A stretch of DNA of 64,000 nucleotides from contig JBCBZT010000003.1 in NCBI GenBank assembly GCA_039815185.1, positions 160,001-224,000 of the forward strand, read 5' to 3'. Source of the stretch: Cyanobacteria bacterium P01_A01_bin.123. GTDB taxonomy: Bacteria; Cyanobacteriota; Cyanobacteriia; Phormidesmidales; Phormidesmidaceae. Under the pieces are notes generated by a model. The model searched no databases. It had not been told where the DNA came from and saw only the letters and a list, made by a program, of their open reading frames with translations. Of the stretch, positions 41,470-54,396 are shown one piece after another. Position numbers and translations under genes: made by a program. Within the stretch, counting starts at the first letter, position 1. The number at the start of each line of letters is the position of its first letter.

Positions 41470-44139
41470 TTAGTCAACAGCGGTGACGAAACGCACTAAA
41501 CCGAGTTCGTCGACACCCACTGTCCCCACATCGACAAAGGCCGCCCCTAAAGTGCCAGCATTCCCACTAGGGCAAGCGCCATTGGCGGTTAGTGCCGCTA
41601 GAAATGCACCTTCATCACCATCCGATGCATTGGTCTGGTTAACAGCTGCACCTAAAGCCGCCGCAGGGCTGGCATAAGCAACCCCTTGTCCAGCGGCAAA
41701 CCCATCGGTCACAAACGAGGAATTGGCAGGCACCGGGTCACAAATGGAAACATCAGTAAACGCAGCGGCGGTACGATTAATGAAGTAGATTGTGTACTCG
41801 ACCTGGTCTCCACTGGTGAGTTCATTCAGGGGTGCGGTAGGTGTTGTCACCCCCACAAAGGCATTATCCGGTGGGCTACCTGTAGGGGCAGCAAAGTTTG
41901 TTGTTACCCCACCGCGTACAATCCGCGTGATTCGCTTGATCAGCTCTAGACCAAAGGTGATGGGGGTAGGGGTGTCGTTGTTGGGGCTGGTTGGGTCTTC
42001 GTTGGCATTGTCAACCACATTGCCACCATCGTTAGAGTTATCGGTTAATGGAATGCCTGTATTGCCAATTTCACCTCCCCCCACTGCAATATTTTCATAG
42101 TTCAGTAAGTTGCCTGGGGTAACCCGAATGGTGAATTGAACTGTGATAAATGAACGAGTAACACTCCCGGTTGTTAAAATTGCTGGGCCTAGGGTTGCAG
42201 CACCCAGTAAATTAGTATCTCCGGTACCATCAAAGCCAGCATTCGCGACGGCGGTCGTTTGTGTCAATCCCGATGCAGCAGTAGGGCCACTTGTAGCCGT
42301 CACTGTTGGGGCAACTTGAACATTAAAGGCCGTTGCTCCAGCAAAGGTTGTGGCTACATTATCGGTCAGCGTCACATTGGTGAGGGCAATCGTGCTGAGA
42401 TTTTCAATGGTGACTTCAAAGAGAACATCAAATTGAGTGGCCCCCACTGGTGTGATTGAAATAACTTGTTTGGCGACCCCCAGCCCAGCGGTAGTCGTTA
42501 TAAGGCCGCTGAGCTCCGAGGTTGACAGCGTCGCTGGGTTTGTTGCGGTTGATGTGACAACATCCCCCAAAGTTAAGGCTCCTGGTCTCGTATTGGTGAA
42601 GGTAAAGCGATTGGTTGTGTCTTCGCCTTGAGCAGATTGATAGGCGGGCGGAATCCCGGGGCCGTAGCTACCTGTACCTGCTGTGACATCGTTGCCGCCG
42701 CCTTCAGTTTCTGTTAGCAAGAAAGTTTCTGCTTCACCGAAGTTGTTGGGATCAGGTGTCGTAACGGTAAACAGCTCAATAATTGCGCCAGGGCGGGCAA
42801 AGCCCGTGAGAATGAGTTGGCTATTGTCATTTGTGATGATAGCTGCCTCATAGACGGGGAAATTAAAGCGTTCGTTAGGGTCACCGTCAGCATCACCATT
42901 GTCGTTTAGGGTGATGCCGTCGCCGGTATTGCCACCATTCAAATCGATAGCCAACCTACCCGCTGCATTGACCGTGGCCCCTGTCGCTGCGTTACGGCCA
43001 TTTTCAAAAATGCTGTTTTGGGTAATGCGATTACCAGTGCCCTGGCTCACAACGATGCCGTCGTTGACGTTTGCCGTAATCGTGTTGTTAGAAATCAAAT
43101 TATTATTGCCGTTGCGGATACCAATACCCGCGTCTTGATCCGCTCCTGGCCCCAAGCCATTGGCTCGAATTGTGTTACCAGAAATCGTATTGTTATCGTT
43201 GGCAAAAGTACGGAGGTCAATGCCGTAAGCCGCATTGCACTCAATCAGGTTATTGGTAATCGTGATATTGTTAGCCGCTACTAACTCAATGCCATCTGCT
43301 AGTTGATCGGCAGCGCCCCCCCTATTGGTGCCGTTTGCACCACACATAAAGCTTGCCATTGTATTAGTCGGCACACCACCCGCGTTGACGCGAACTATAT
43401 TGTTGTCAATCGTGACGCCAGACGCCCCAAAACGGACACTAATACCGCCGTTATCATTGTTTTGAACGATACTGTTGCGAACGACAGAGCCTGCAACGCT
43501 TTGGTTGCCGAAATTAGCCTGAGCAGGTGTAGGACTGTTGTCAGTGGTGCCATTGAAGAAAATCCCAGAACCGTTTCTATCAGCGCCGATACTGTCTTGA
43601 ACAATTAAGGTATCGAGGGTTGTATTTGGTGCTTCTACCCGGATAATGGCACCACTGCCAACCCCGCCGCCTTGCCCCACGCTTTCAATCGTCAAATTTT
43701 GAATGGTGGAACCAGCCGCTGTTGCTGCGATCAGAAAACCAGGGCCACCATTGCCTTGATAGTCGATGATGGTGGTCGTCTGGCTGCCACCGACAATCGT
43801 CATCGGCGTGCTGATGGTGGGGAGTGGGGTTCCCCCCACGTTAATCGTGGTTGCGGCAGGGATATTGATTGTATCTAGGCCAGCATCACCGGCGATACAT
43901 TCATTGACTGCTGTATCGGTGTTGGCTGCTTGCATTGCTTCTCGTAGCGTACATTGACCATCAGCAGCAACGGTATCTCCAGCCCCTGTCACAGTAATCG
44001 TTGCTGCTAGAGAAGGCGTGGCACAACCCAAAATGCTTACTAGCGCAGTGCTGAAAAGCAACCCAGTTTTTATGGCTAGGGGTGACCAACAGGATTGAAA
44101 CGTTGAGGTCATATCATTGAGTGATCGCAGAGGTTTCAC
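41470..44139 (-). CDS. Secreted CSLREA-type / right-handed beta-helix / DUF11 adhesin-like protein (paralogue 2)
   Basis: Signal peptide (PSLA-A), DGQCTLREA, Asn-rich beta-helix, Ig-like domain and two DUF11-like domains. GTG 44139 aligns with the paralogue's ATG (ORF extends to 44208). Confidence 0.85.
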   Translation of the reverse strand: MKPLRSLNDMTSTFQSCWSPLAIKTGLLFSTALVSILGCATPSLAATITVTGAGDTVAADGQCTLREAMQAANTDTAVNECIAGDAGLDTINIPAATTINVGGTPLPTISTPMTIVGGSQTTTIIDYQGNGGPGFLIAATAAGSTIQNLTIESVGQGGGVGSGAIIRVEAPNTTLDTLIVQDSIGADRNGSGIFFNGTTDNSPTPAQANFGNQSVAGSVVRNSIVQNNDNGGISVRFGASGVTIDNNIVRVNAGGVPTNTMASFMCGANGTNRGGAADQLADGIELVAANNITITNNLIECNAAYGIDLRTFANDNNTISGNTIRANGLGPGADQDAGIGIRNGNNNLISNNTITANVNDGIVVSQGTGNRITQNSIFENGRNAATGATVNAAGRLAIDLNGGNTGDGITLNDNGDADGDPNERFNFPVYEAAIITNDNSQLILTGFARPGAIIELFTVTTPDPNNFGEAETFLLTETEGGGNDVTAGTGSYGPGIPPAYQSAQGEDTTNRFTFTNTRPGALTLGDVVTSTATNPATLSTSELSGLITTTAGLGVAKQVISITPVGATQFDVLFEVTIENLSTIALTNVTLTDNVATTFAGATAFNVQVAPTVTATSGPTAASGLTQTTAVANAGFDGTGDTNLLGAATLGPAILTTGSVTRSFITVQFTIRVTPGNLLNYENIAVGGGEIGNTGIPLTDNSNDGGNVVDNANEDPTSPNNDTPTPITFGLELIKRITRIVRGGVTTNFAAPTGSPPDNAFVGVTTPTAPLNELTSGDQVEYTIYFINRTAAAFTDVSICDPVPANSSFVTDGFAAGQGVAYASPAAALGAAVNQTNASDGDEGAFLAALTANGACPSGNAGTLGAAFVDVGTVGVDELGLVRFVTAVD

Positions 44140-44284
44140 ATCACACCGAAACAAGGTACAGGTTACTCCAGTTAGAAAACGGTTACTTAACTGCAAGCAT
44201 GATACCAAGGTTACGGACTGCTCCAGAGATGATTCTCCTACGGCGATCGCAGGCCAAATCTATTGCAGACCGAACATGATCAGC

Positions 44285-46945
44285 TTAATCAACCGTGGTA
44301 ACAAACCGCACAAAACCCCGTTCATCGACGTCTACCGTACCGACATCGACGAATGCAGCCCCTAAAGCCCCGGCATTGCTGTTAGGACAAGCCCCATTAG
44401 CCACTAGGGCCGCCAGAAACTCACCAGCATCAGCATCAGCGGCATTGCTTTGATTGATGCCTGCCCCCAAAGCTGCCGCCGGAACCGCATAGGAAATGCC
44501 CTCACCTTCGGCAAACCCATTCGGCGCAAAGGAGCTATTCTCAGGCACTGGATCACAAATGGAAACATCAGTAATAGCAGCGCCTGTGCGGTTGATGAAA
44601 TAGATTGTGTACTCTACCTGATTACCACTGACGAGCGAGTCTAAGGGGGCAGGCGGCGTTTCTACCCCAACAAAACTATCGTCAGGGGGATTGCCCGTCA
44701 CCGTGGTGAAGTTTGTCTCTATGCCATCTTGAACCACCCGTGTAATCCGTTTGATCAACTCTAGTCCAAAGGTAATGGGGGTAGGGGTGTTGTTATTAGG
44801 ACTGGTTGGATCTTCATTCGGATTATCAACGACAGTGCCGCCATCATTAGATTCATCTCTCAACGGAACGTCGGTATCGCCGATATTACCTGTCCCTACG
44901 GCAATATTTTCGTAATTCAGTAAAGTTCCTGGCGTGACTCGAACGACATATTCAACTTCGATAAACGAGGGCGTATCCGATCTTAAAATCCGGGGCCCCA
45001 GAGTTGCCCCAGCTGCGAGCAGATTGACATCACCACCGGGGTTTACGCCGTCAAAGTTTGTATTTTCTGCCGCGGCTGTACCATCTCCGTTTGTGTCTGT
45101 GATATCAATGGCTGAGGCTGGTGGTGTGGTTAACACTTGGAAGCTGTCCGCACCAGCGAAGGTTGTGGATAGGTCATCCGTGATTTGAACATTGGTTAGG
45201 GTAACTGAGCTCAAGTTCTCAACTCTGAGCCTAAACCTTACATCAAACACACCTGCCGACACTGGGGTCACAGACACAACTTGTTTTGCGACGCCAATCC
45301 CAGCGGTGGTAGTAATCAGACCGCTGAGCTCAGAGGTTGAGAGTGTGACAGGGTTAGTGGCCGTTGACGTCACCACATCACCGATGGCCAAGGCGCCTGG
45401 TCTGGTGTTGGTAGAGGTAAAGCGATTCGTCGTATCTTGTCCTTGAGCGGTTTGGTATCCAGGCGGAATGTCTGGACCATAACTCCCTGTCCCCGGTGTG
45501 ACATCGTTTGCACCGCCTTCAGTTTCTGTCAACAAGAAGGTTTGCGCTTCCCCAAAATTGTTGGGGTCAGGGTTAGCAACCGTAAATAGCTCAATAATGG
45601 CGCCTGGGCGGGTAAAGCCAGTAAGAATGAGTTGGCTATTGTCATCGGTGATAATGGCCGCTTCAAAAACCGGGAAGTTGAAGCGTTCGTTGGGGCCACC
45701 ATCGGCATCACCATTGTCATTCAACGTGACGCCATCCCCAGTATCGCCAACGCCTAAATCGATGGCTAACCTATCAGCTGCATTGACAATGCCCCCTGTG
45801 GTTGGGTTACGACCATTCTCAAAAATGCTGTTTTGGGTAATGCGATTCCCGATACCTTGGCTGACTACGATACCGTCGTTGACGTTTGCAGTAATGGTGT
45901 TGGTCGAGATCGTATTATCATTACCGTTTCGCACACCAATACCCGCGTCTTGGTCCGTTGACACCCCGAGACCATTGGCTCGAATTGTGTTGTTGGAAAT
46001 CGTATTATTATCGTTGGCAAAAGTCCGAAGATCGATGCCGTAGCTGGCGTTACACTCAATTGTGTTGTTTGTAACTGTGATGTTGTTGGCCCCGACTAGC
46101 TCAATACCATCCGCCCGTGGATCGGCGCTGCCCCCCCGATTGGTCCCGTTTACGGCACATCCAAAGGTCCCTATTGTGTTGGTCGGTACGGTGCCTCCGT
46201 TGACGCGAACCAGGTTGTTGTCAATGGTGACCCCAGACGCACCGAAGCGGACAGTAATCCCCCCGTTGTCGTTGTTTTGAACAATGCTGTTGCGAATGAC
46301 AGACCCTGAAACATCTCTGCTTCCAAATGTTGCTGCAGGGGGCGTGGGATCGGTGCTAGTCGTGCCATTGAAAAAGACTCCGGAGCCATTTCTATCGGGG
46401 CCAAAGCTGTCCTGAACAATTAAGGTGTCCAGAGTTGTGTTTGGTGCTTCTACCCGAATAATGGCACCCGAACCGGCAACAGCGTCTGGGCCAACGCTTT
46501 GAATCGTTAGATTTTGAACGGTGGAGTTTGCTGCTGTGATTAGTAAGCCAGGCCCCCCATTGCCGTTGTAGTCGATGATGGTGGTGTCGCGACTGCCCCC
46601 ATTAATGGTCATCTGCGTACTGATGGTGGGTAGGGGTGTGCCGCCTACATTAATCGTGGTTGCGGCGGGGATATTGATGGTGTCAAATCCGTCACCAGCC
46701 GTACACTCATTCACGGCTGCATCAGTATTGGCTGCCTGAATGGCTTCTCGCAGCGTGCAAATACCATCAGCGGCAACGGTGTCTCCAGCCCCTGTCACAT
46801 TAATGGTTGCCGCGAAGGCAGGTGCAGCGTGTCCCAAAACGCCCAATAGCGCAGTGCCAAAAACTAAACCAGTTCGGTTAGCTAAGGGTAACGAGCAGGA
46901 TTGAACCGTTGAGACGATATCGTTGAGCGATTTCAGGGATTTCAT
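44285..46945 (-). CDS. Secreted CSLREA-type / right-handed beta-helix / DUF11 adhesin-like protein (paralogue 1)
   Basis: Signal peptide (PAFA-A), DGICTLREA; same architecture as, and co-linear with, 41470-44139. Start is ATG 46945 or GTG 46960. Confidence 0.85.
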   Translation of the reverse strand: MKSLKSLNDIVSTVQSCSLPLANRTGLVFGTALLGVLGHAAPAFAATINVTGAGDTVAADGICTLREAIQAANTDAAVNECTAGDGFDTINIPAATTINVGGTPLPTISTQMTINGGSRDTTIIDYNGNGGPGLLITAANSTVQNLTIQSVGPDAVAGSGAIIRVEAPNTTLDTLIVQDSFGPDRNGSGVFFNGTTSTDPTPPAATFGSRDVSGSVIRNSIVQNNDNGGITVRFGASGVTIDNNLVRVNGGTVPTNTIGTFGCAVNGTNRGGSADPRADGIELVGANNITVTNNTIECNASYGIDLRTFANDNNTISNNTIRANGLGVSTDQDAGIGVRNGNDNTISTNTITANVNDGIVVSQGIGNRITQNSIFENGRNPTTGGIVNAADRLAIDLGVGDTGDGVTLNDNGDADGGPNERFNFPVFEAAIITDDNSQLILTGFTRPGAIIELFTVANPDPNNFGEAQTFLLTETEGGANDVTPGTGSYGPDIPPGYQTAQGQDTTNRFTSTNTRPGALAIGDVVTSTATNPVTLSTSELSGLITTTAGIGVAKQVVSVTPVSAGVFDVRFRLRVENLSSVTLTNVQITDDLSTTFAGADSFQVLTTPPASAIDITDTNGDGTAAAENTNFDGVNPGGDVNLLAAGATLGPRILRSDTPSFIEVEYVVRVTPGTLLNYENIAVGTGNIGDTDVPLRDESNDGGTVVDNPNEDPTSPNNNTPTPITFGLELIKRITRVVQDGIETNFTTVTGNPPDDSFVGVETPPAPLDSLVSGNQVEYTIYFINRTGAAITDVSICDPVPENSSFAPNGFAEGEGISYAVPAAALGAGINQSNAADADAGEFLAALVANGACPNSNAGALGAAFVDVGTVDVDERGFVRFVTTVD

Positions 46946-46969
46946 AGCACGCTGAGACACAAGACAGAG

Positions 46970-49042
46970 TTATTCCAGTTGCAGATCGGTTTCTTGACGT
47001 TCAAAGATAATGTCGAGGCCACGGGTGTCTTCAAAGATGACTTCCACGCGGCGATCGCGGGCGTAATCGAGCCGAGTGCTGCCAGTGGTTGCCCGTTGGC
47101 TTTCGCCGAAGGGCCGAATCCGCATTCGTTCAGGTTCAATGCCCTGCTGCAGTAGATAGTTACGGGCAGACAGAGCCCGGCGCTCACTCAAGGCTTGGTT
47201 GTACGCATCGCTGGCACGGGGATCGGTGTGGCCTTGCAGTTCGATCACAATAAAGGGATATTCCAACAGAACCGCTGCAATCTGATCGAGCACATTGGCA
47301 CTCTCTGGGCTGATGTTGGAGCGATCGAGGGCGAAGTGAATATTGCGCGGCACTTGCAGTTGCAATGGCTCCGGGGGGGGCGCTTCCGAGGGCGGTTCCG
47401 GGGGGGGATCAGCTGCAAAGCAGCTGGGAGGCGAGATTGGTTCGAGCGCCAAGTCAGGAATCGGTTCGCCCATAACCCGAACGGTTGTCACCGGGGCGGG
47501 TTCGGAGGTGCCATATTGGGGATCAGTGGCGATCGCACTGAGGCGAGTCCCTGCCGGTACGGACAATGTGGTCGCAAACTGGCCAGCATCATCGGCAGTA
47601 ACCGTCGCGAGGAATTTTGCCAGGGGACTGTAAACCCTCTGATCTTCCACCACCTGGTAGATGTCTACCTCTGATCCTGGATCCGCAGTGCCTTGTAAGG
47701 TAACTTCACCCTGTTCTAAGGGAAATTCATAGGCCATAAATTGGGGGGCATTGATTGCCCCATTGCCCGTGTCCGTGCGGCGGTTGTGAGAATTGCGCGG
47801 TGGATTGGGACCATCGGCCTCTTGATAAGCCCTGACCTCGCTAGCGTCAGCCGCATTCAAGTCAATGCTGAGTCCATCGAGCTGCAAAAACTGATTGTTG
47901 CGGATAATGTTGCGATCGCTGCGGGGAAAAGCCGTTACCGTCACCCCAGGTCCAGGCTGATAGCCGATCAGATTATTCAAAACCTGATGGTCATTGCCCA
48001 TGAGGTAAACGGCTGCCCGTTCGAATCGTCGCCCGTTGAACTTGATCGAATTGTCTTGAATCAGAACTGCGCCTTCGGGTTTGAACAGATAAATGCCGCT
48101 ACCGTCGTTGCCACACAGCAGGTTATTCTCCAGAACCGCATCGGTCACGATTCCTTCTAACCGAATTGCATCGGGCATCCCGGCTATGCCATTGCCAATA
48201 ATGGTATTGCCAGTCACCATTAACTCCTCAGCCCGCACCCCCGTGATAATGGCGCTACCATCGTGGTGCCGAATCTGGTTTTGACGGATGGTAACCCCAG
48301 TGGCATTAAAGACGGATACTCCAAAGGTTGAAGTCTCCTCGGGAAAGCGATTTTCTGGCGGTAATCCCAGCCAATTTTGTTCAATCACCACATCTTTCGT
48401 TGCGGCCTCAGACGTGCCGAAATCAAAAAAGCTGAGCGGGGGCGACAATGGGCTAGCGTCCGCTGGGTGTGGAGCATTACTAATGAAGATGTCGCTGGGG
48501 GGAGTGGTTTGTGTCGATCGCGGCGCTGCTCGAAACCCATAGATACTCAATCCGCGCACGGTTACCCCATCACCAATGATGGTCAGCCCACGAAAGACTT
48601 CCTGTCCAGCTGCTGGGGTCAACGCCACTACAGGTACGGGTACGGGCACTTGGGCCTGGGGTGGTTCAGCATTGCCGTATCCCGGCTGAGTTGTGCCGTC
48701 AATTAGGGTATTGGGCGTTTCAATTGCGGGCAGTAAGGTTTCAACTGCAATCGTGGTTTGAGCTAAGGGTAGATTGAACTGGATCTGCGGTGCTCCAGTC
48801 GGGGAAGGGGCAATCAGGGCTTGCTCCGCTGGGCTCAGCGCCGCCGGCGTTAGAGTCCCATTAGCCAGCTCAATCGCTTCTCGTAGGGTGAGGATCCCAT
48901 CGGCAGTTACTGGGCCATCTAGATCACTGTTGACCGTCACGATATACGGTTCAAAAGTTTGCTCGTTAGGGGTTTGGGCGATCGCTGGGAGAGCGAGTAA
49001 ATAAATAAAAGGTGCTGACAGTATCGATATCTGACGAATCAT
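46970..49042 (-). CDS. Beta-helix protein with C-terminal OmpA-like peptidoglycan-binding domain
   Basis: Signal peptide, LTLREAI, beta-helix, Pro linker, HFALD..GHTD..YNQALSERRA..RDRRVE. Confidence 0.9.
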   Translation of the reverse strand: MIRQISILSAPFIYLLALPAIAQTPNEQTFEPYIVTVNSDLDGPVTADGILTLREAIELANGTLTPAALSPAEQALIAPSPTGAPQIQFNLPLAQTTIAVETLLPAIETPNTLIDGTTQPGYGNAEPPQAQVPVPVPVVALTPAAGQEVFRGLTIIGDGVTVRGLSIYGFRAAPRSTQTTPPSDIFISNAPHPADASPLSPPLSFFDFGTSEAATKDVVIEQNWLGLPPENRFPEETSTFGVSVFNATGVTIRQNQIRHHDGSAIITGVRAEELMVTGNTIIGNGIAGMPDAIRLEGIVTDAVLENNLLCGNDGSGIYLFKPEGAVLIQDNSIKFNGRRFERAAVYLMGNDHQVLNNLIGYQPGPGVTVTAFPRSDRNIIRNNQFLQLDGLSIDLNAADASEVRAYQEADGPNPPRNSHNRRTDTGNGAINAPQFMAYEFPLEQGEVTLQGTADPGSEVDIYQVVEDQRVYSPLAKFLATVTADDAGQFATTLSVPAGTRLSAIATDPQYGTSEPAPVTTVRVMGEPIPDLALEPISPPSCFAADPPPEPPSEAPPPEPLQLQVPRNIHFALDRSNISPESANVLDQIAAVLLEYPFIVIELQGHTDPRASDAYNQALSERRALSARNYLLQQGIEPERMRIRPFGESQRATTGSTRLDYARDRRVEVIFEDTRGLDIIFERQETDLQLE

Positions 49043-52000
49043 TAGACCTCACCCCCTGTTTCGATGTCGTTTGGTGCCGCGTTAGCAGGTTGATCGGGTT
49101 CAACATAGGAGTCTTGCTGCTGCTGCGGTGACACCATCTGCAATCCAAATCCATTCAATAGTTCATTTACCTTGAAGGTGACGCCCAAATAAACCCCGCT
49201 ACCCGAGCGATACGCGTTGTCACCTACAAAGCTGCCTTCATTTGCGCCGCCAAAGCTGTAACCTACCCCTAATCGCAGATCAGGCGTCAAGTAATATCCC
49301 GCTTCTAGGGCAAATCCAGTTTCGCTATAGCCAACGGTGGGTTGACCAATCCAGCGGGCTCCTGCTGTGACATCCCAACGGTAGGCAAAGCGATAGGTTG
49401 CCCGCATTTGGGCAAAATGAATGGAATTGGAAAATCCAAAGTCGTCAGCTAGATTGACATTGCTGTAACGCAAGGCATACTTGCCATAAAGTTCCCACTG
49501 CCAGCTGGGGGATAAGATGCCCTCTAATGCCAACGTATGATCTACGGCGTCGTTGCTGGAGCCAATCAGAATGCTATCGGGTGTGGTGCTGGGATTATTG
49601 CGATACTCGTAGCTCAATAATCCGTTGAAAATATCGCTGCTTGGATCGCGGTAGGCCAGCCCCAACCTGAGATTAATCGAATTACCAAGGTTGCCCGTGA
49701 TGGTCTGGTTTGCAAAGTTAGCCTGCTCGTAGCGAAACAGGGTCGTCAACGACCGGGTAATGCGGCCCCCAGCGGCAGCCGTAAACACGGTGTTGTCGCC
49801 ACTATCAGAATCTCGATGTTCAAATCGTGCACTGGCCTGAAAATCTGGGTTGTCTGTATACTCCAAGCCAATACTATAAGCGGTGCTGGACTGGAGTCCC
49901 AACGCAGAAGCGTTTTGACCCACAGCAAAGGGTTGGGCAAACTGCTCTCCCCCCCCGGTTAGGTTGAACGCGTCGCCAAAGATGCGTTCTAGGCCAAAGT
50001 TCGCTCGCAACCCAGGTGCTAACACCATGCGGTGATTCAACCCAATGGCTCCCTGCCCCGTGATGCCGTTAAATCCTCCCAACAGGGAATACCGATTTGT
50101 CAACGTTGTGTTGTCGTCTAAGGCGTAATCGATCAGGCTATCCAGGCGAGTGACTGAGCCTGGGTTAGCCCCGCCGGTAAACTGTTGTGCCAGCCGCAGG
50201 GTCATACCGGGTTGTACGGCCCATTCTAGGCCTACGGTTTGGCGATCGGGATAAAGTGAATCGCCGGTGCCCAGGTTTAACTCACTCTGGGCCAAAAAAC
50301 TCAAATCTCCTGTGATTGGCAGATTCAGCCGAGAGACTACTTGATTAGAGTCAGTATTGAGATTGGTGATGCGATCATCGCGACCGCGAAAGATCCAATC
50401 AACGCCTAGGGTAGTGGCACCGAACCGTTGCTGAATGCCAATCTGGCCTGTGGTTAAGGTGTTATCGACTGAACTCCCCTGAATGGCCTGTTGCCCGGGC
50501 GATAGCAAGGCTCCGGCAGAGGTCAATACTGCTGGGGATGAGCCAACGTTTGTTTCTTGGTCGATTAAACCTCGAAGCAGGGTGCTGGGGCCAATGCGAG
50601 CCGCGATCTCGGCTCCCCAGCGCGTTTGTCCGGGACGAAAGCTAGAGGTGTAGTCGTTTTGAAACTCAGGTGCGGCAGATTGCAGATAGGCGCGACCAAA
50701 TACATTAGGCAGAACGTTGCCATTAAAGGCCAATCGAAAGGCATTTCCTGAAGTCGTGGCCCCCCCGCTAAACGAATCTGATCGGGCCCATTCCCCAACG
50801 AACGTCCCAATGCTGCCAATCGGCAACTGGAGATCAACGCCGTATAGATTGGAGTCAAAATCTCCCTGGTCTGCGTGGAGAAACGTAGCCCCAACCCAGC
50901 TATTGAGATCGGGGGTGAAGGCATACTGCAATCGCCCTGCATACAATTCACCGCCAAATTCACCGCCGTCTAGTTGGTAGGTGACAACAATCCGACGCAC
51001 CAGCGTCTCGCCGAAGGGATCGATCTCTGTGGCATAAATCGGTTGACGAAATAGCAGCGTGCCTCGGTCATAATCAATGTCATAGTCAGCTCCCCGATAA
51101 AGCTCTGTACGCTCAACTACCGTCCCGGGGCGATTAATCTCCTCAGTCTCGATAAAAACATTTTCACTCCCGCGCAGCACTGCCCGCCGAGATAAGAAAT
51201 AAAAGCCACTGGTGCCGTCGGGTGCAATCGTATCGCGCTGCAACTGCTGTAAGTTGTTGCCGTACATGGCCGTGACTTGCAACCCATTGGCAAAACTATA
51301 GTTGCCCTTAAAGCCGTGGAGTTGCAGTGTAGTCGCGGTAAAGGTTTGAGAAGACCGAGCAAATTCTGGAGTGCTGTAATCGCCCCACATCAGGTAGTCA
51401 GGTTCAGCCCCTGGCAAGATAGAGTCTCTCTGGAGGCGCAAATAAAGACTGTCGGCAGACGGGGTCAAAAATTCTGAGGTCGAGCTGTCGCCATAAACCG
51501 GATAGGTTTGGTCACAAGCTTGGAGATCATTGAGGATACCGTTATCCCCTCCACAACGCTCGTTTAAGTTTCGCTCGCTCGTGTATGCTCCGGTAATTTG
51601 CCAATCTCCCAGGGTGCCAATGCCAAACAGGGAAATATCAGGGTCAAACTCCGTTCCGTTGTCAAGTAGATCCGGATTGAGAAAGTCTCCAAAGCTCCCC
51701 CAAAAATCAGTTCCGGCTTGCCCCAACCGCAAATGCACCACACCCGAAACTAGAGATGGCCTCAAATCCGTGACAAATTGAACCTCGGTGTAGGCTGCGA
51801 CCTCTGGATAAGGGTCGGGATCGATCGCTGGATCAAGTCCGCGCACTTGATGGCCATTAACGGCTGCCCGAATCTGAACGGTCTGAGCGTCTAGATCAGA
51901 ACGCAGCAGCGTCTCAAACTCCCCACGACGGGCCAGAATTTGAAATCCTGCGAGATCGTTGTCATAGTCTGTCTGGACAAATACTCCAGCACTACTGGTT

Positions 52001-52791
52001 AGCGTGACAATGATATCTCGATCAAGTACGACGCCATCGACATCGAGCACTTGTCCGCTCAGTCTGACCACGGCTCGTCCATTGGCTGGAATAATGCCGT
52101 TACCAATGGGCTCAATTTGGAGTGTTGGCCCTTGATTTTCCTCCAGCAAGTCCTCTTCTGACAGACGCTCTAAGGGATCTTCGGGAGCATCGGGGCGTAA
52201 GGCAGGGGGCGGCACAAATTCGTCCATGGGGGTACCCCCATCTCCATCAAACTGAGCCATCAGTTCAGCTTGATGGGGGGATATTGGAGCGGCTTGAAAA
52301 TCAAGGGTTGACGCTTCTAGGACGCCGGAAAAAGCTAGGTTATTTCCCTCAAGCGCCAATGTTTCAGAGTCAGTTGAGTGCGATCGCGCCGGGGAAACAT
52401 GAGCATCTGAGTTGCTGACTGGGTCATTAACTGGATCGTTAACGAGGGTATTTGCCTCAATTAAGTCTCCAGTCTGTAAGACAGCGGCGTCAGTGGCCAA
52501 GCCGTCAGCTGTTTCCCTTATTCTGGGGAGATTAAGTGCAGGTGAAACATGGGTCGTCGATCCAACATTCTCATCGGCTGACGGGCTCGCCTCAGGGGAA
52601 ACTGATTGGGGTTGCAGGTCCTGATTGACCATTGGCTGCTGATCATCGCTTGGCAGCGGCGCAGCGTCATCAACCGCCACGGACAGGTTCGATGCAGCCG
52701 CTTCCCCATATGCAGGAAATGCTGCACTTAAAACTCCAGCGATAACGGCCAGTGCCTTAATTGCCAGTAAAGTTTGCTGTGAGCTTGCCAT
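49042..52791 (-). CDS. Large outer-membrane beta-barrel protein with N-terminal disordered region and Ig-like domain
   Basis: Signal peptide (PAYG-E), IPANGR..Ig-like segment, YPVYGDSS, a long run of amphipathic strands ending GVYLGVTFK. Stop overlaps the next ATG (TAATG). Start is ATG 52791 or GTG 52881. Confidence 0.8.
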   Translation of the reverse strand: MASSQQTLLAIKALAVIAGVLSAAFPAYGEAAASNLSVAVDDAAPLPSDDQQPMVNQDLQPQSVSPEASPSADENVGSTTHVSPALNLPRIRETADGLATDAAVLQTGDLIEANTLVNDPVNDPVSNSDAHVSPARSHSTDSETLALEGNNLAFSGVLEASTLDFQAAPISPHQAELMAQFDGDGGTPMDEFVPPPALRPDAPEDPLERLSEEDLLEENQGPTLQIEPIGNGIIPANGRAVVRLSGQVLDVDGVVLDRDIIVTLTSSAGVFVQTDYDNDLAGFQILARRGEFETLLRSDLDAQTVQIRAAVNGHQVRGLDPAIDPDPYPEVAAYTEVQFVTDLRPSLVSGVVHLRLGQAGTDFWGSFGDFLNPDLLDNGTEFDPDISLFGIGTLGDWQITGAYTSERNLNERCGGDNGILNDLQACDQTYPVYGDSSTSEFLTPSADSLYLRLQRDSILPGAEPDYLMWGDYSTPEFARSSQTFTATTLQLHGFKGNYSFANGLQVTAMYGNNLQQLQRDTIAPDGTSGFYFLSRRAVLRGSENVFIETEEINRPGTVVERTELYRGADYDIDYDRGTLLFRQPIYATEIDPFGETLVRRIVVTYQLDGGEFGGELYAGRLQYAFTPDLNSWVGATFLHADQGDFDSNLYGVDLQLPIGSIGTFVGEWARSDSFSGGATTSGNAFRLAFNGNVLPNVFGRAYLQSAAPEFQNDYTSSFRPGQTRWGAEIAARIGPSTLLRGLIDQETNVGSSPAVLTSAGALLSPGQQAIQGSSVDNTLTTGQIGIQQRFGATTLGVDWIFRGRDDRITNLNTDSNQVVSRLNLPITGDLSFLAQSELNLGTGDSLYPDRQTVGLEWAVQPGMTLRLAQQFTGGANPGSVTRLDSLIDYALDDNTTLTNRYSLLGGFNGITGQGAIGLNHRMVLAPGLRANFGLERIFGDAFNLTGGGEQFAQPFAVGQNASALGLQSSTAYSIGLEYTDNPDFQASARFEHRDSDSGDNTVFTAAAGGRITRSLTTLFRYEQANFANQTITGNLGNSINLRLGLAYRDPSSDIFNGLLSYEYRNNPSTTPDSILIGSSNDAVDHTLALEGILSPSWQWELYGKYALRYSNVNLADDFGFSNSIHFAQMRATYRFAYRWDVTAGARWIGQPTVGYSETGFALEAGYYLTPDLRLGVGYSFGGANEGSFVGDNAYRSGSGVYLGVTFKVNELLNGFGLQMVSPQQQQDSYVEPDQPANAAPNDIETGGEV

Positions 52792-52846
52792 AGTGCGTCT
52801 GTTTCTTAACTTCCCTGATTGTTTGGTCGATACTTCCCTGCGAACA

Positions 52847-53878
52847 CTATTGACCTGGCCCAACAACCTGGCCCTCACCAAAGGTAGGGGTCACTCCAAA
52901 GTTCATACGTACCAATCCACCTGGCTCAAGCTGAACCAGGCGCGACTGGCTGTTTTGGTCAAGACGATACAAGTTAGGCGCTAGGGTATAACCCGGCAAG
53001 CTGGTTAAATCCAACGTGCCGACTCGATACCCGCGATAGACATTTGCTACGGAAAATAAGCCCTCGGGGTCGGTAATGATGCGATTGCCATCATCCATAA
53101 AGACAACAGCATTGGGGACTCCTTCTTCTCCAGGTTGCTGTTCACCATCGAAATTTTTATCAACAAAGACCCGTCCGACAACCGTGCCACAATCGGCAAC
53201 GATCCCCGGACGAATCAGCAGTTGAAACTGAGAAGTAACGGTTGCAAATCCCGGAGCGGAGGCCTGGGCAGTGTTCTCCCCTGACCCCCGAACTGAATCA
53301 GGAGTGAGCAATACAGCATAGACAATATTGATCGATTCACCCGCGGCCAAGGTTGGAAACTCAAGGGTAATCTGACTGTTATCGAAGCTTACTGAAGTCG
53401 GTGCGGTAGGCGTTGCCTGGACTGAATCAGGCACATACAGCAGACCTAGGGGTAACTGATCAACAATGGTCAGCGGTGTAGCCGCAGTAGTCGTGCTGTT
53501 GTTGGTTACCAGCAGTCTGTACAGCACCACATCCCCAGGCTCTGCAGCAGCTCGATCTGCGGTCTTAACAATCGATAATCCTTGCTCCTGGGCAGCTGTC
53601 CCCGATACCTGATAAGAGGTGGTGTTTGAGGTGCCAGTTTGCACATTACCACCAGAGGTGAATTGAGCCGATGCTTGGTTAGTCACCGTTACCTGTGCCT
53701 GGGAGGCAGTCGGCAAAATCAGCCCACCATGAAGTGCAAGGCTGGTAAACAAAGCCAACAAAAAAATCATCCAGCGTCTAAGAAGACGCCTACCTGTAGC
53801 GAATATCGGTTTCAACACCCACAACTCCCACACACTCGGTAGATAACGTAATATCACCGAAAAATCAGATAAAGTCAA
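52847..53878 (-). CDS. Secreted DUF11 + SdrD-B/Cna-B-like protein
   Basis: Signal peptide (ASQA-Q), LSIVKTADRAAAEPGD.V.Y (DUF11), GRVFVDKNFDGEQQPGE.GVPNA (SdrD-B-like). True start is probably downstream (~53818 or 53770). Confidence 0.85.
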   Translation of the reverse strand: MTLSDFSVILRYLPSVWELWVLKPIFATGRRLLRRWMIFLLALFTSLALHGGLILPTASQAQVTVTNQASAQFTSGGNVQTGTSNTTSYQVSGTAAQEQGLSIVKTADRAAAEPGDVVLYRLLVTNNSTTTAATPLTIVDQLPLGLLYVPDSVQATPTAPTSVSFDNSQITLEFPTLAAGESINIVYAVLLTPDSVRGSGENTAQASAPGFATVTSQFQLLIRPGIVADCGTVVGRVFVDKNFDGEQQPGEEGVPNAVVFMDDGNRIITDPEGLFSVANVYRGYRVGTLDLTSLPGYTLAPNLYRLDQNSQSRLVQLEPGGLVRMNFGVTPTFGEGQVVGPGQ

Positions 53879-54396
53879 GTATCAAAAAAACAGAAATGTA
53901 CGTAATTACGCATAATTACGCATTCTCACGCGATGATACTCTGCTGAAATTCACCTAGGTACTTTATCAGAAGATGGCGTGGATGATTGCCGTCACTACT
54001 CAGAAAGGAAAGATTAGCCAAATTGCAACACGCCTAAGAGCAGTGTGCTTGTCGTCACAGCGCAAGATTCTGATAGCCTTATAAGGGGTCTTACCCCCCC
54101 TATAGAGGGGCTGTTACAGGACTAATGCAGGAACGTCTACTGTCAGATAGAGGCGAAATGGCATCAGTGCTTATACTTGATTAAGAATTGTTGAAAGTTC
54201 CTCAAAAAACGTACTTTTACGGAAGGTATTCAACTCGTTTTGGCGATTTGCACCTACTTATGTCAGGAAAACCTGACATAAGTAGGTGCTTCTACTTGTT
54301 CCCTATCCACATTCACCGCAGGCGTTTTCTCCAGGCTAAAACTCAAATTTTCAAATCGGATTACGGTTAGCTTCAATGATGAGTGACCGTTAAGCT

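Follow-up and report, generated by a model that had tools for sequence, protein, structure and literature searches.

A cyanobacterial five-gene locus whose surface proteins may be joined by a CLIPPER domain split between two genes

The 64,000-nucleotide stretch analyzed here, referred to as the window, is part of contig JBCBZT010000003.1 of Cyanobacteria bacterium P01_A01_bin.123 (assembly GCA_039815185.1). Five co-directional open reading frames (ORFs), g1 to g5 in the order of transcription, fill its positions 41470-53878 on the minus strand. The proteins encoded by g4 and g5 end in a truncated CLIPPER (DUF11) domain, and by sequence the Asn-containing hairpin at the N-terminus of g1 resembles the two strands that this last domain is missing. 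Since their last domain is without the two strands with which g1 begins, the adhesins likely plug into g1. We lean, without great confidence, towards a model in which g1 supplies the missing strands, the adhesins being plugged onto it, probably locked by a spontaneous Lys-Asn bond and likely presented at the surface by the barrel predicted for g2, either on it or through it. The broader proposal, on which we are evenly divided, is that the locus belongs, as its shaft-less form, to an undescribed secretion and assembly pathway that spans several phyla of two-membrane bacteria. In this pathway, one of the largest single-chain outer-membrane barrels would export folded immunoglobulin (Ig) and beta-helix proteins, and a split isopeptide domain would covalently connect the tip to the base, via a shaft where there is one, with no need for sortase, chaperone-usher machinery or ATPase. 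The features of the locus are as follows (aa, amino acids).

52847..53878, minus strand: g1, putative base/adaptor; signal peptide and predicted donor hairpin, followed by a CLIPPER (DUF11) domain that is complete (K105/D140/N202) and a C-terminal domain of the SdrD-B-like kind
53603..53695, minus strand: g1 residues 62-92, beta-hairpin predicted to act as donor, its Asn67 at 53678-53680, from an anchored alignment and an independent profile
52880..53206, minus strand: g1 residues 225-333, SdrD-B-like domain, predicted barrel dock, from conservation and from its place before the barrel in fused chains
49042..52791, minus strand: g2, outer-membrane protein, ATG start, 1249 aa; signal peptide, acidic linker of low complexity, Ig domain and a barrel predicted to have about 38 strands
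51769..52134, minus strand: g2 residues 220-341, invasin/intimin-like Ig domain, from VIA against invasin 1cwv and profile matches to GH2 Ig domains
50971..51243, minus strand: g2 residues 517-607 (91 residues), beta-rich insert following long strand 7, possibly a plug, from DSSP and conservation
46970..49042, minus strand: g3; beta-helix head resembling that of the cargo, Big_6, linker rich in proline, OmpA-C domain and a conserved DLQxE tail
44285..46945, minus strand: g4, putative tip adhesin 1; CSLREA and beta-helix, a CLIPPER-type domain that is internal and complete (K554, D589/590, N680), and at the C-terminus a truncated acceptor
44288..44782, minus strand: g4 residues 722-886, truncated CLIPPER acceptor with K732, D798 and the pair C797-C853, stopping before the Asn strand
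41470..44112, minus strand: g5, putative tip adhesin 2, tandem paralogue of g4; CSLREA/beta-helix/TIGR01451
41473..41967, minus strand: g5 residues 716-880, truncated acceptor with K726 and D792

Acceptor and donor halves of the putative split domain

According to the accessible part of PMC12617251, CLIPPER (DUF11) domains are CnaA-like and contain an intramolecular Lys715-Asn806 bond with Asp748 as the catalyst. The internal domain of g1 has this triad complete in one chain: K105, D140 and N202 are identical in 42 of 42 rows, and its profile covers positions 2-122 of a 122-position profile built from 83 complete DUF11 domains. The C-terminal domain of g4 and g5 lacks the full triad in one chain, keeping Lys and Asp and ending ahead of the Asn strand. 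In 43 acceptor rows selected by BLAST, the Lys and Asp (K732 and D798 of g4) are identical throughout, and the chain ends one or two residues past the last core strand in 42. The acceptor profile matches positions 1-88 of the complete-domain profile, in which an insertion mis-registers the first acceptor strand, and the protein ends there (Prob 97.6). The Asn motif of DUF11 domains in 40 non-cyanobacterial loci was found in 119 of 131 internal versus 11 of 75 C-terminal copies. While the heads of the cargo proteins differ between loci, the acceptor is their sole common part.

The acceptor was modeled with a predicted local distance difference test score (pLDDT) of 84.8, and VIA matched it to Gram-positive CnaA-type pilin domains and to the CLIPPER structure 9IFR (Z 6-7.5). 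These matches stop at chain residue 109 of 9IFR and at residue 307 of RrgB. The isopeptide Asn of RrgB, Asn318, lies beyond this end. For 9IFR, residue 109 would correspond to residue 797, nine before Asn806, if the numbering starts at 18 with two tag residues, as the length of 123 residues suggests. Searches of the PDB with the g4 sequence and the acceptor profile gave no matches.

The counterpart of the acceptor is found at the mature N-terminus of g1, which consists of an Asn-x-Ala strand followed by a second strand. Long versions of the locus, described below, carry an extra gene of 800-970 aa whose product opens with such a donor hairpin and closes with a truncated acceptor, a layout which by its sequence is that of a self-polymerising (self-complementing) shaft. 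A donor profile was built solely from 28 shaft N-termini and used with a threshold of 5 bits. It detected 28 of 41 g1 N-termini, and the corresponding numbers were 0/41 for barrels, 0/16 for g3, 0/23 for small DUF11 proteins, 2/43 for cargoes and 5/287 for other ORFs, the four of these listed being family members. Aligned to the complete DUF11 domain, the shaft donor profile falls on positions 94-120 (Prob 67, E 5e-5). Sequence and model thus describe complementary donor and acceptor halves, as donor-strand complementation would need. Neither the alignment nor the donor profile revealed a donor hairpin in g4 or g5, which would therefore be tips. The mature g1 sequence had no match in the PDB.

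The g2 barrel and the proposed assembly

No family in Pfam or NCBIfam matched g2, its sequence found nothing in the PDB, where its profile matched Ig domains only, and a query of the ESM Atlas returned unnamed clusters only. It has 1808 relatives at the level of 50% clusters, 200 of them with E < 1e-30; the closest named homologues are proteins of Almyronema, Nodosilinea and Leptolyngbya, and many homologues bear the NCBI name 'TonB-dependent receptor'. Residues 220-1235 were modeled from an alignment of 69 sequences (pLDDT 81.7, predicted template-modeling score 0.77). The model consists of the Ig domain, which matches invasin 1cwv tightly (VIA Z 11.9, root mean square deviation (rmsd) 1.6, 91 aligned), and a predicted barrel with about 38 strands, counted as long DSSP strands. 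Its most conserved parts are the loop after strand 3 and the insert after strand 7, with 13.6 and 14.3 near-invariant columns per 100, respectively, against 4.5 in strands 8-38 (122 rows). On the basis of the model and of its conservation, this mid-barrel insert likely gates the pore. After the barrel, the model ends in a low-confidence tail, without N- or C-terminal periplasmic domains of the PapC type.

In a Foldseek search, large barrels (SlpA, SprA, MtrB) came out on top with a query template-modeling (TM) score of up to 0.22 and rmsd 19-40, so that no solved barrel fits the whole model. With VIA, parts of the model could be matched to PapC (Z 13.0, rmsd 9.1, 339 aligned, model 169-706), to SprA (Z 11.7, rmsd 11.5, 500 aligned; Foldseek TM 0.15-0.17) and to porins (Z 12-15.7). 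The PapC match is tied with those to porins, and g2 may or may not be a remote relative of ushers; the g2 profile had no sequence-profile match to ushers.

Two known barrel types were considered for g2 and rejected. A type V barrel (autotransporter or two-partner) would have 12 or 16 strands and, in the case of TpsB, POTRA domains. A TonB receptor would have 22 strands rather than about 38, and an invasin-like Ig domain, not a plug, precedes the barrel here. By Pfam, TonB-receptor, plug, usher and POTRA families are absent from 51 of 51 members of the g2 family scanned, in line with the initial remark that chaperone-usher and POTRA motifs are missing. The lack of TonB-receptor and plug families together with the fold mismatch indicates that g2 is not a TonB receptor, and the first-pass annotation is thus not refuted by an ordinary TonB-transporter fold, one of the outcomes it had named as refuting; the NCBI name of its homologues looks like a misannotation.

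From these parts, the following course of assembly can be proposed. All five proteins, judging from their signal-peptide-like N-termini, would be carried across the inner membrane by Sec. The g2 protein would then insert into the outer membrane, with its insert likely gating the pore, and g1 would dock on it with the SdrD-B-like domain, as the fusions in other phyla suggest. Next, g4 or g5 would exit head first, and its CnaA-type C-terminal domain, short of the last two strands, would be completed by the g1 hairpin. By analogy to CLIPPER chemistry, K732 of g4 or K726 of g5 would form a bond with N67 of g1, catalyzed by D798 or D792, while the OmpA-C domain of g3 may tie the barrel to peptidoglycan. 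The proteins of g4 and g5 had been proposed to be exported cargo, which holds and can be sharpened to tips that would end in one part of a split CLIPPER domain; they may leave the cell through the barrel.

Gene order, fusions and shaft genes

The barrel occurs patchily, in 45 of 301 genomes of the cyanobacterial phylum. Our cyanobacterial set consists of 40 loci: a second locus of this genome and, from other genomes, 39 of 45 strong matches, each taken with the surrounding 20 kb; the six omitted matches lie mostly close to contig ends. A g1 gene precedes the barrel gene in 40/40 loci and cargo with the common C-terminal domain follows it in 39/40, so the neighbourhood is conserved, as a survey suggested at the outset was meant to establish. 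A further 40 loci stem from Desulfobacterota-type, Nitrospirota, Verrucomicrobia, Lentisphaerae and alphaproteobacterial records, with a query biased to deltaproteobacteria and several short contigs. In 34 of these, the C-terminal domain of g1 and the barrel form one chain; a shaft and a tip are each present in 26. DUF11 and the g1 C-terminal domain are fused to the barrel in every one of the 44 distant homologues with a length of 1500 aa or more, bearing out the expected association with DUF11 and SdrD-B, and 26 of the 44 also have an N-terminal donor. Due to the relatedness of the genomes, these counts are descriptive. Since the SdrD-B-like domain, which is more conserved than any other part of g1, forms one chain with the barrel elsewhere, g1 and g2 together represent a split base. 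The early idea of g1 as an adaptor or base thus stands in a sharper form, that of a base separated from its barrel which would also carry part of a split CLIPPER domain.

Variants of this architecture were seen as well. Fusion partners of the barrel include OmpA-like domains, which follow or precede it, and a set of three SLH domains (L001, L076, L077; P0251, P0258, P0213, P0225). On alphaproteobacterial plasmids (L003:836-13882, L004:3335-13810, L005:7859-13786), a giant DUF11 protein of 1975-4348 aa with a g1-like end is encoded directly before the barrel gene, which by sequence is a one-piece version of the stalk. Three barrel matches (L015, L018, L025, in genomes G059, G098 and G035) are interrupted by a single stop. 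A piece 64% identical to a deltaproteobacterial barrel is found on a 2.1-kb contig (L095) which is assigned to a Methanomicrobiales archaeon and probably misbinned.

A long form of g1 is present in 29 of the 40 cyanobacterial loci, each of which (29/29) has a shaft gene. In the 11 loci with a short g1, no shaft gene was found within the fetched stretch, nor was a shaft found with the shaft query used in the four genomes (99-100% complete) that hold only a short locus. In a quick tree, the barrels of short loci, including that of the window, form a single branch (12 rows from seven families, SH-aLRT support 100). The window therefore contains a version of the locus that is stable without a shaft and has two tips arisen by duplication. 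From a clade that has no shaft gene, one would expect a stalk only as long as roughly one adhesin and one adaptor, not a long fibre.

The same assembly has a second locus of the long type (L038:9236-11941; L006:1968-15509, genome G000, contig C49). It contains a shaft gene, a small DUF11 protein, a long g1, a barrel (49% identical), a beta-helix-OmpA protein and a cargo of SdrD repeats bearing the same acceptor. With an assembly contamination of 5.99%, this locus likely, not certainly, belongs to the same organism. The small truncated DUF11 protein of 170-245 aa recurs beside the shaft gene (L043-L055, L078-L117) and is possibly a cap or a chaperone. That this small protein of long loci (about 187 aa) always lacks the catalytic acid did not hold: cyanobacterial copies mostly lack it, but 9 of 21 copies from outside the cyanobacteria have the Asp. 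Two cargo genes with both donor and acceptor (L049:663-3461 and L049:3561-5696) are candidate minor shaft subunits.

Of the five genes, g3 has the least clear role, with a cargo-like beta-helix head beside OmpA. It is found in 16 of the 40 cyanobacterial loci, three of these copies being without OmpA. The OmpA-C domain fits the periplasmic tether that g3 had been taken for, but the cargo-like head and this occurrence indicate that it is not only a tether. The DLQxE-like tail of the OmpA partner is kept from cyanobacteria to Acinetobacter and Geobacteraceae (window 46970-47000; L002:17590-18672; L108-L113) and is possibly a barrel-binding strand.

Within the window, trpA lies on one side of the block and cobH/cbiC on the other, and the five genes are genuine and form a conserved unit. 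The initial description of five co-directional genes with signal-peptide-like N-termini and their respective domains was confirmed by the ORFs, Pfam/NCBIfam searches and a crude hydrophobicity scan, in which all five N-termini show a hydrophobic stretch, then a signal-peptidase-like site and no lipobox. The g1 protein matches DUF11 (E 5e-10) and, below the cut-off, SdrD_B (E 0.0025); beta-helix, Big_6 and OmpA were matched by g3, and CSLREA, beta-helix and TIGR01451 by g4 and g5. The latter two are 74.7% identical, and the N-terminal head of g3 is common to them (26% over about 475 aligned columns, E 1e-7). The start codon of g1 is ambiguous (TTG 53878 or ATG 53770). The TAATG stop/start overlap first noticed between g2 and g3 is present at 49044-49040 and couples translation of g3 to that of g2, and spacing and conserved order suggest that all five genes are co-transcribed. 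A promoter and terminator scan of the locus found nothing above chance level. An inverted repeat of 18 pairs between trpA and g1 (window 54250-54289) is probably the trpA terminator.

Alternative explanations and known systems

Several observations weigh against completion of the adhesins by g1 and their display on the barrel. Every fold match of the acceptor has Z < 8 and may reflect only a common arrangement. The g1 hairpin of the window reaches only 2.1 bits on the shaft donor profile, though at residues 64-94, and a profile of the g1 donors gives only a weak alignment with the complete DUF11 domain (Prob 3, E 0.015). The donor Asn is invariant in the anchored alignment because the alignment was anchored on it; an unanchored full-length alignment of long and short g1 forms, which failed at the N-terminus, recovered it in just 13 of 42 sequences. 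In addition, the figure of about 38 strands depends on the DSSP assignment of a single model built from 69 sequences, one of the 40 cyanobacterial loci (L074) has no cargo gene nearby, and in some fusions OmpA or SLH domains stand between the DUF11/SdrD part and the barrel, which makes the proposed topology tentative.

The proteins could instead be joined head to tail by strand complementation without a covalent bond, as in chaperone-usher pili, with Lys and Asp retained for folding only. Some DUF11 domains have no isopeptide bond (accessible part of PMC12617251), and an oligomer of BsaA N35A is partially stable without it (accessible part of PMC11580942). However, Lys and Asp in 43/43 acceptors and an Asn at the matching place of the donor are hard to explain without selection for the bond, and we consider this explanation unlikely.

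It is quite unlikely that the C-terminal domain of g4 and g5 is a secretion signal for the barrel, similar to the type IX system, with the cargo released or held without the g1 hairpin. Unrelated heads do share this single domain, and g2 is near in size to SprA by the VIA match given above. The SprA barrel has 36 strands. However, the domain is short of precisely those strands that are found at the N-termini of g1 and the shafts, and type A/B type IX C-terminal signal domains were not matched in g4 or g5 by Pfam or NCBIfam.

The locus might also encode a periplasmic strut between outer membrane and peptidoglycan, comparable to the SlpA/OmpM tethers and unrelated to export. OmpA or SLH domains accompany the barrel or are fused to it, and SlpA barrels lead the Foldseek list (TM 0.21). 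Such a strut is very unlikely in view of the highly variable cargo heads of up to 2000 aa, the alphaproteobacterial partners of up to 4348 aa and a patchy occurrence that does not resemble that of a core envelope tether. Highly improbable is an import channel of the TonB-receptor kind with glycan-binding beta-helix partners, a reading which could draw on the name of many homologues and on TonB receptors among the Foldseek matches (query TM up to 0.18), but disagrees with the strand number, the Ig domain in place of a plug, the family profiles and the neighbouring genes, which encode DUF11 proteins and not transport or degradation functions.

An adhesin that would be completed and probably locked by g1 has precedents in its parts. 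Chaperone-usher pili (FimH-FimA-FimI with FimC/FimD; PapG-PapA-PapH with PapD/PapC) likewise have an acceptor-only tip, a shaft with donor and acceptor and a terminator or base, and their ushers are large outer-membrane barrels with a mid-barrel insert. The usher has a 24-strand barrel with a beta-sandwich plug after strand 6; in g2, the insert follows the seventh long strand. Unlike these pili, the locus combines a predicted barrel of about 38 strands, a CnaA-type CLIPPER fold, a two-strand donor, a predicted covalent lock and a base that is fused to the barrel in many phyla, and no usher or PapD-type chaperone family was found among the five genes by Pfam/NCBIfam. With SprA of the type IX system, g2 shares the very large single-chain barrel and cargo with a common C-terminal domain; in contrast, there is no sequence match to SprA, g2 has half its length and the cargo is without the type IX signal. 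TonB-dependent receptors are similar as large outer-membrane barrels with an internal domain, the position of which differs.

Complete copies of the CLIPPER domain (PF01345; PDB 9IFR) with CnaA-like fold and Lys-Asp-Asn triad are present in g1, g4 and g5, but the bond described in the accessible part of PMC12617251 is formed within one chain, whereas the terminal copy here would be split between two genes. A precedent for chemistry between chains are the BsaA fibres of Clostridium perfringens, in which an intermolecular isopeptide bond accompanies donor-strand exchange, with Asn from the donor and Lys and an acid from the acceptor (N35, K74, E56; accessible part of PMC11580942). Unlike the present proteins, BsaA is TasA-related, processed by SipW and found in single-membrane cells without an outer-membrane barrel; no TasA-family subunit or SipW peptidase was found among the five genes or four scanned neighbours. 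Archaeal threads, which are grouped with BsaA, reportedly also use donor-strand exchange with an intermolecular isopeptide lock.

No paper on the barrel or the operon emerged from a literature search in which subscription journals were thinly covered. The system is not described in the accessible parts of PMC11821415 and 10.1101/2025.08.19.671072; for HesF/Alr0267 and the CryoSeek TLP-1 fibres, compared by description only, the accessible parts of PMC11494351 and PMC4390845 give no link to DUF11 or the barrel, and the accessible text on the Pam pili of the Candidate Phyla Radiation (PMC13278184) has no DUF11, CLIPPER or isopeptide. While the parts of the mechanism have precedents, the putative translocon family, the proposed split CLIPPER domain and the fused base match no named system.

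If the proposal is true, it would mean a new route of export and surface assembly in two-membrane bacteria, present in 45 of 301 genomes of the cyanobacterial phylum and in several other phyla, and a large family named 'TonB-dependent receptor' would have to be reassigned. It would also mean that surface subunits of Gram-negative cells are joined covalently without an enzyme, and would provide natural pairs for split-domain (tag-and-catcher) ligation. The shaft-less form in the window is the simplest test case, with two proteins and three residues (K732, D798 and N67). For mat- and biofilm-forming cyanobacteria, the system is a candidate for attachment.

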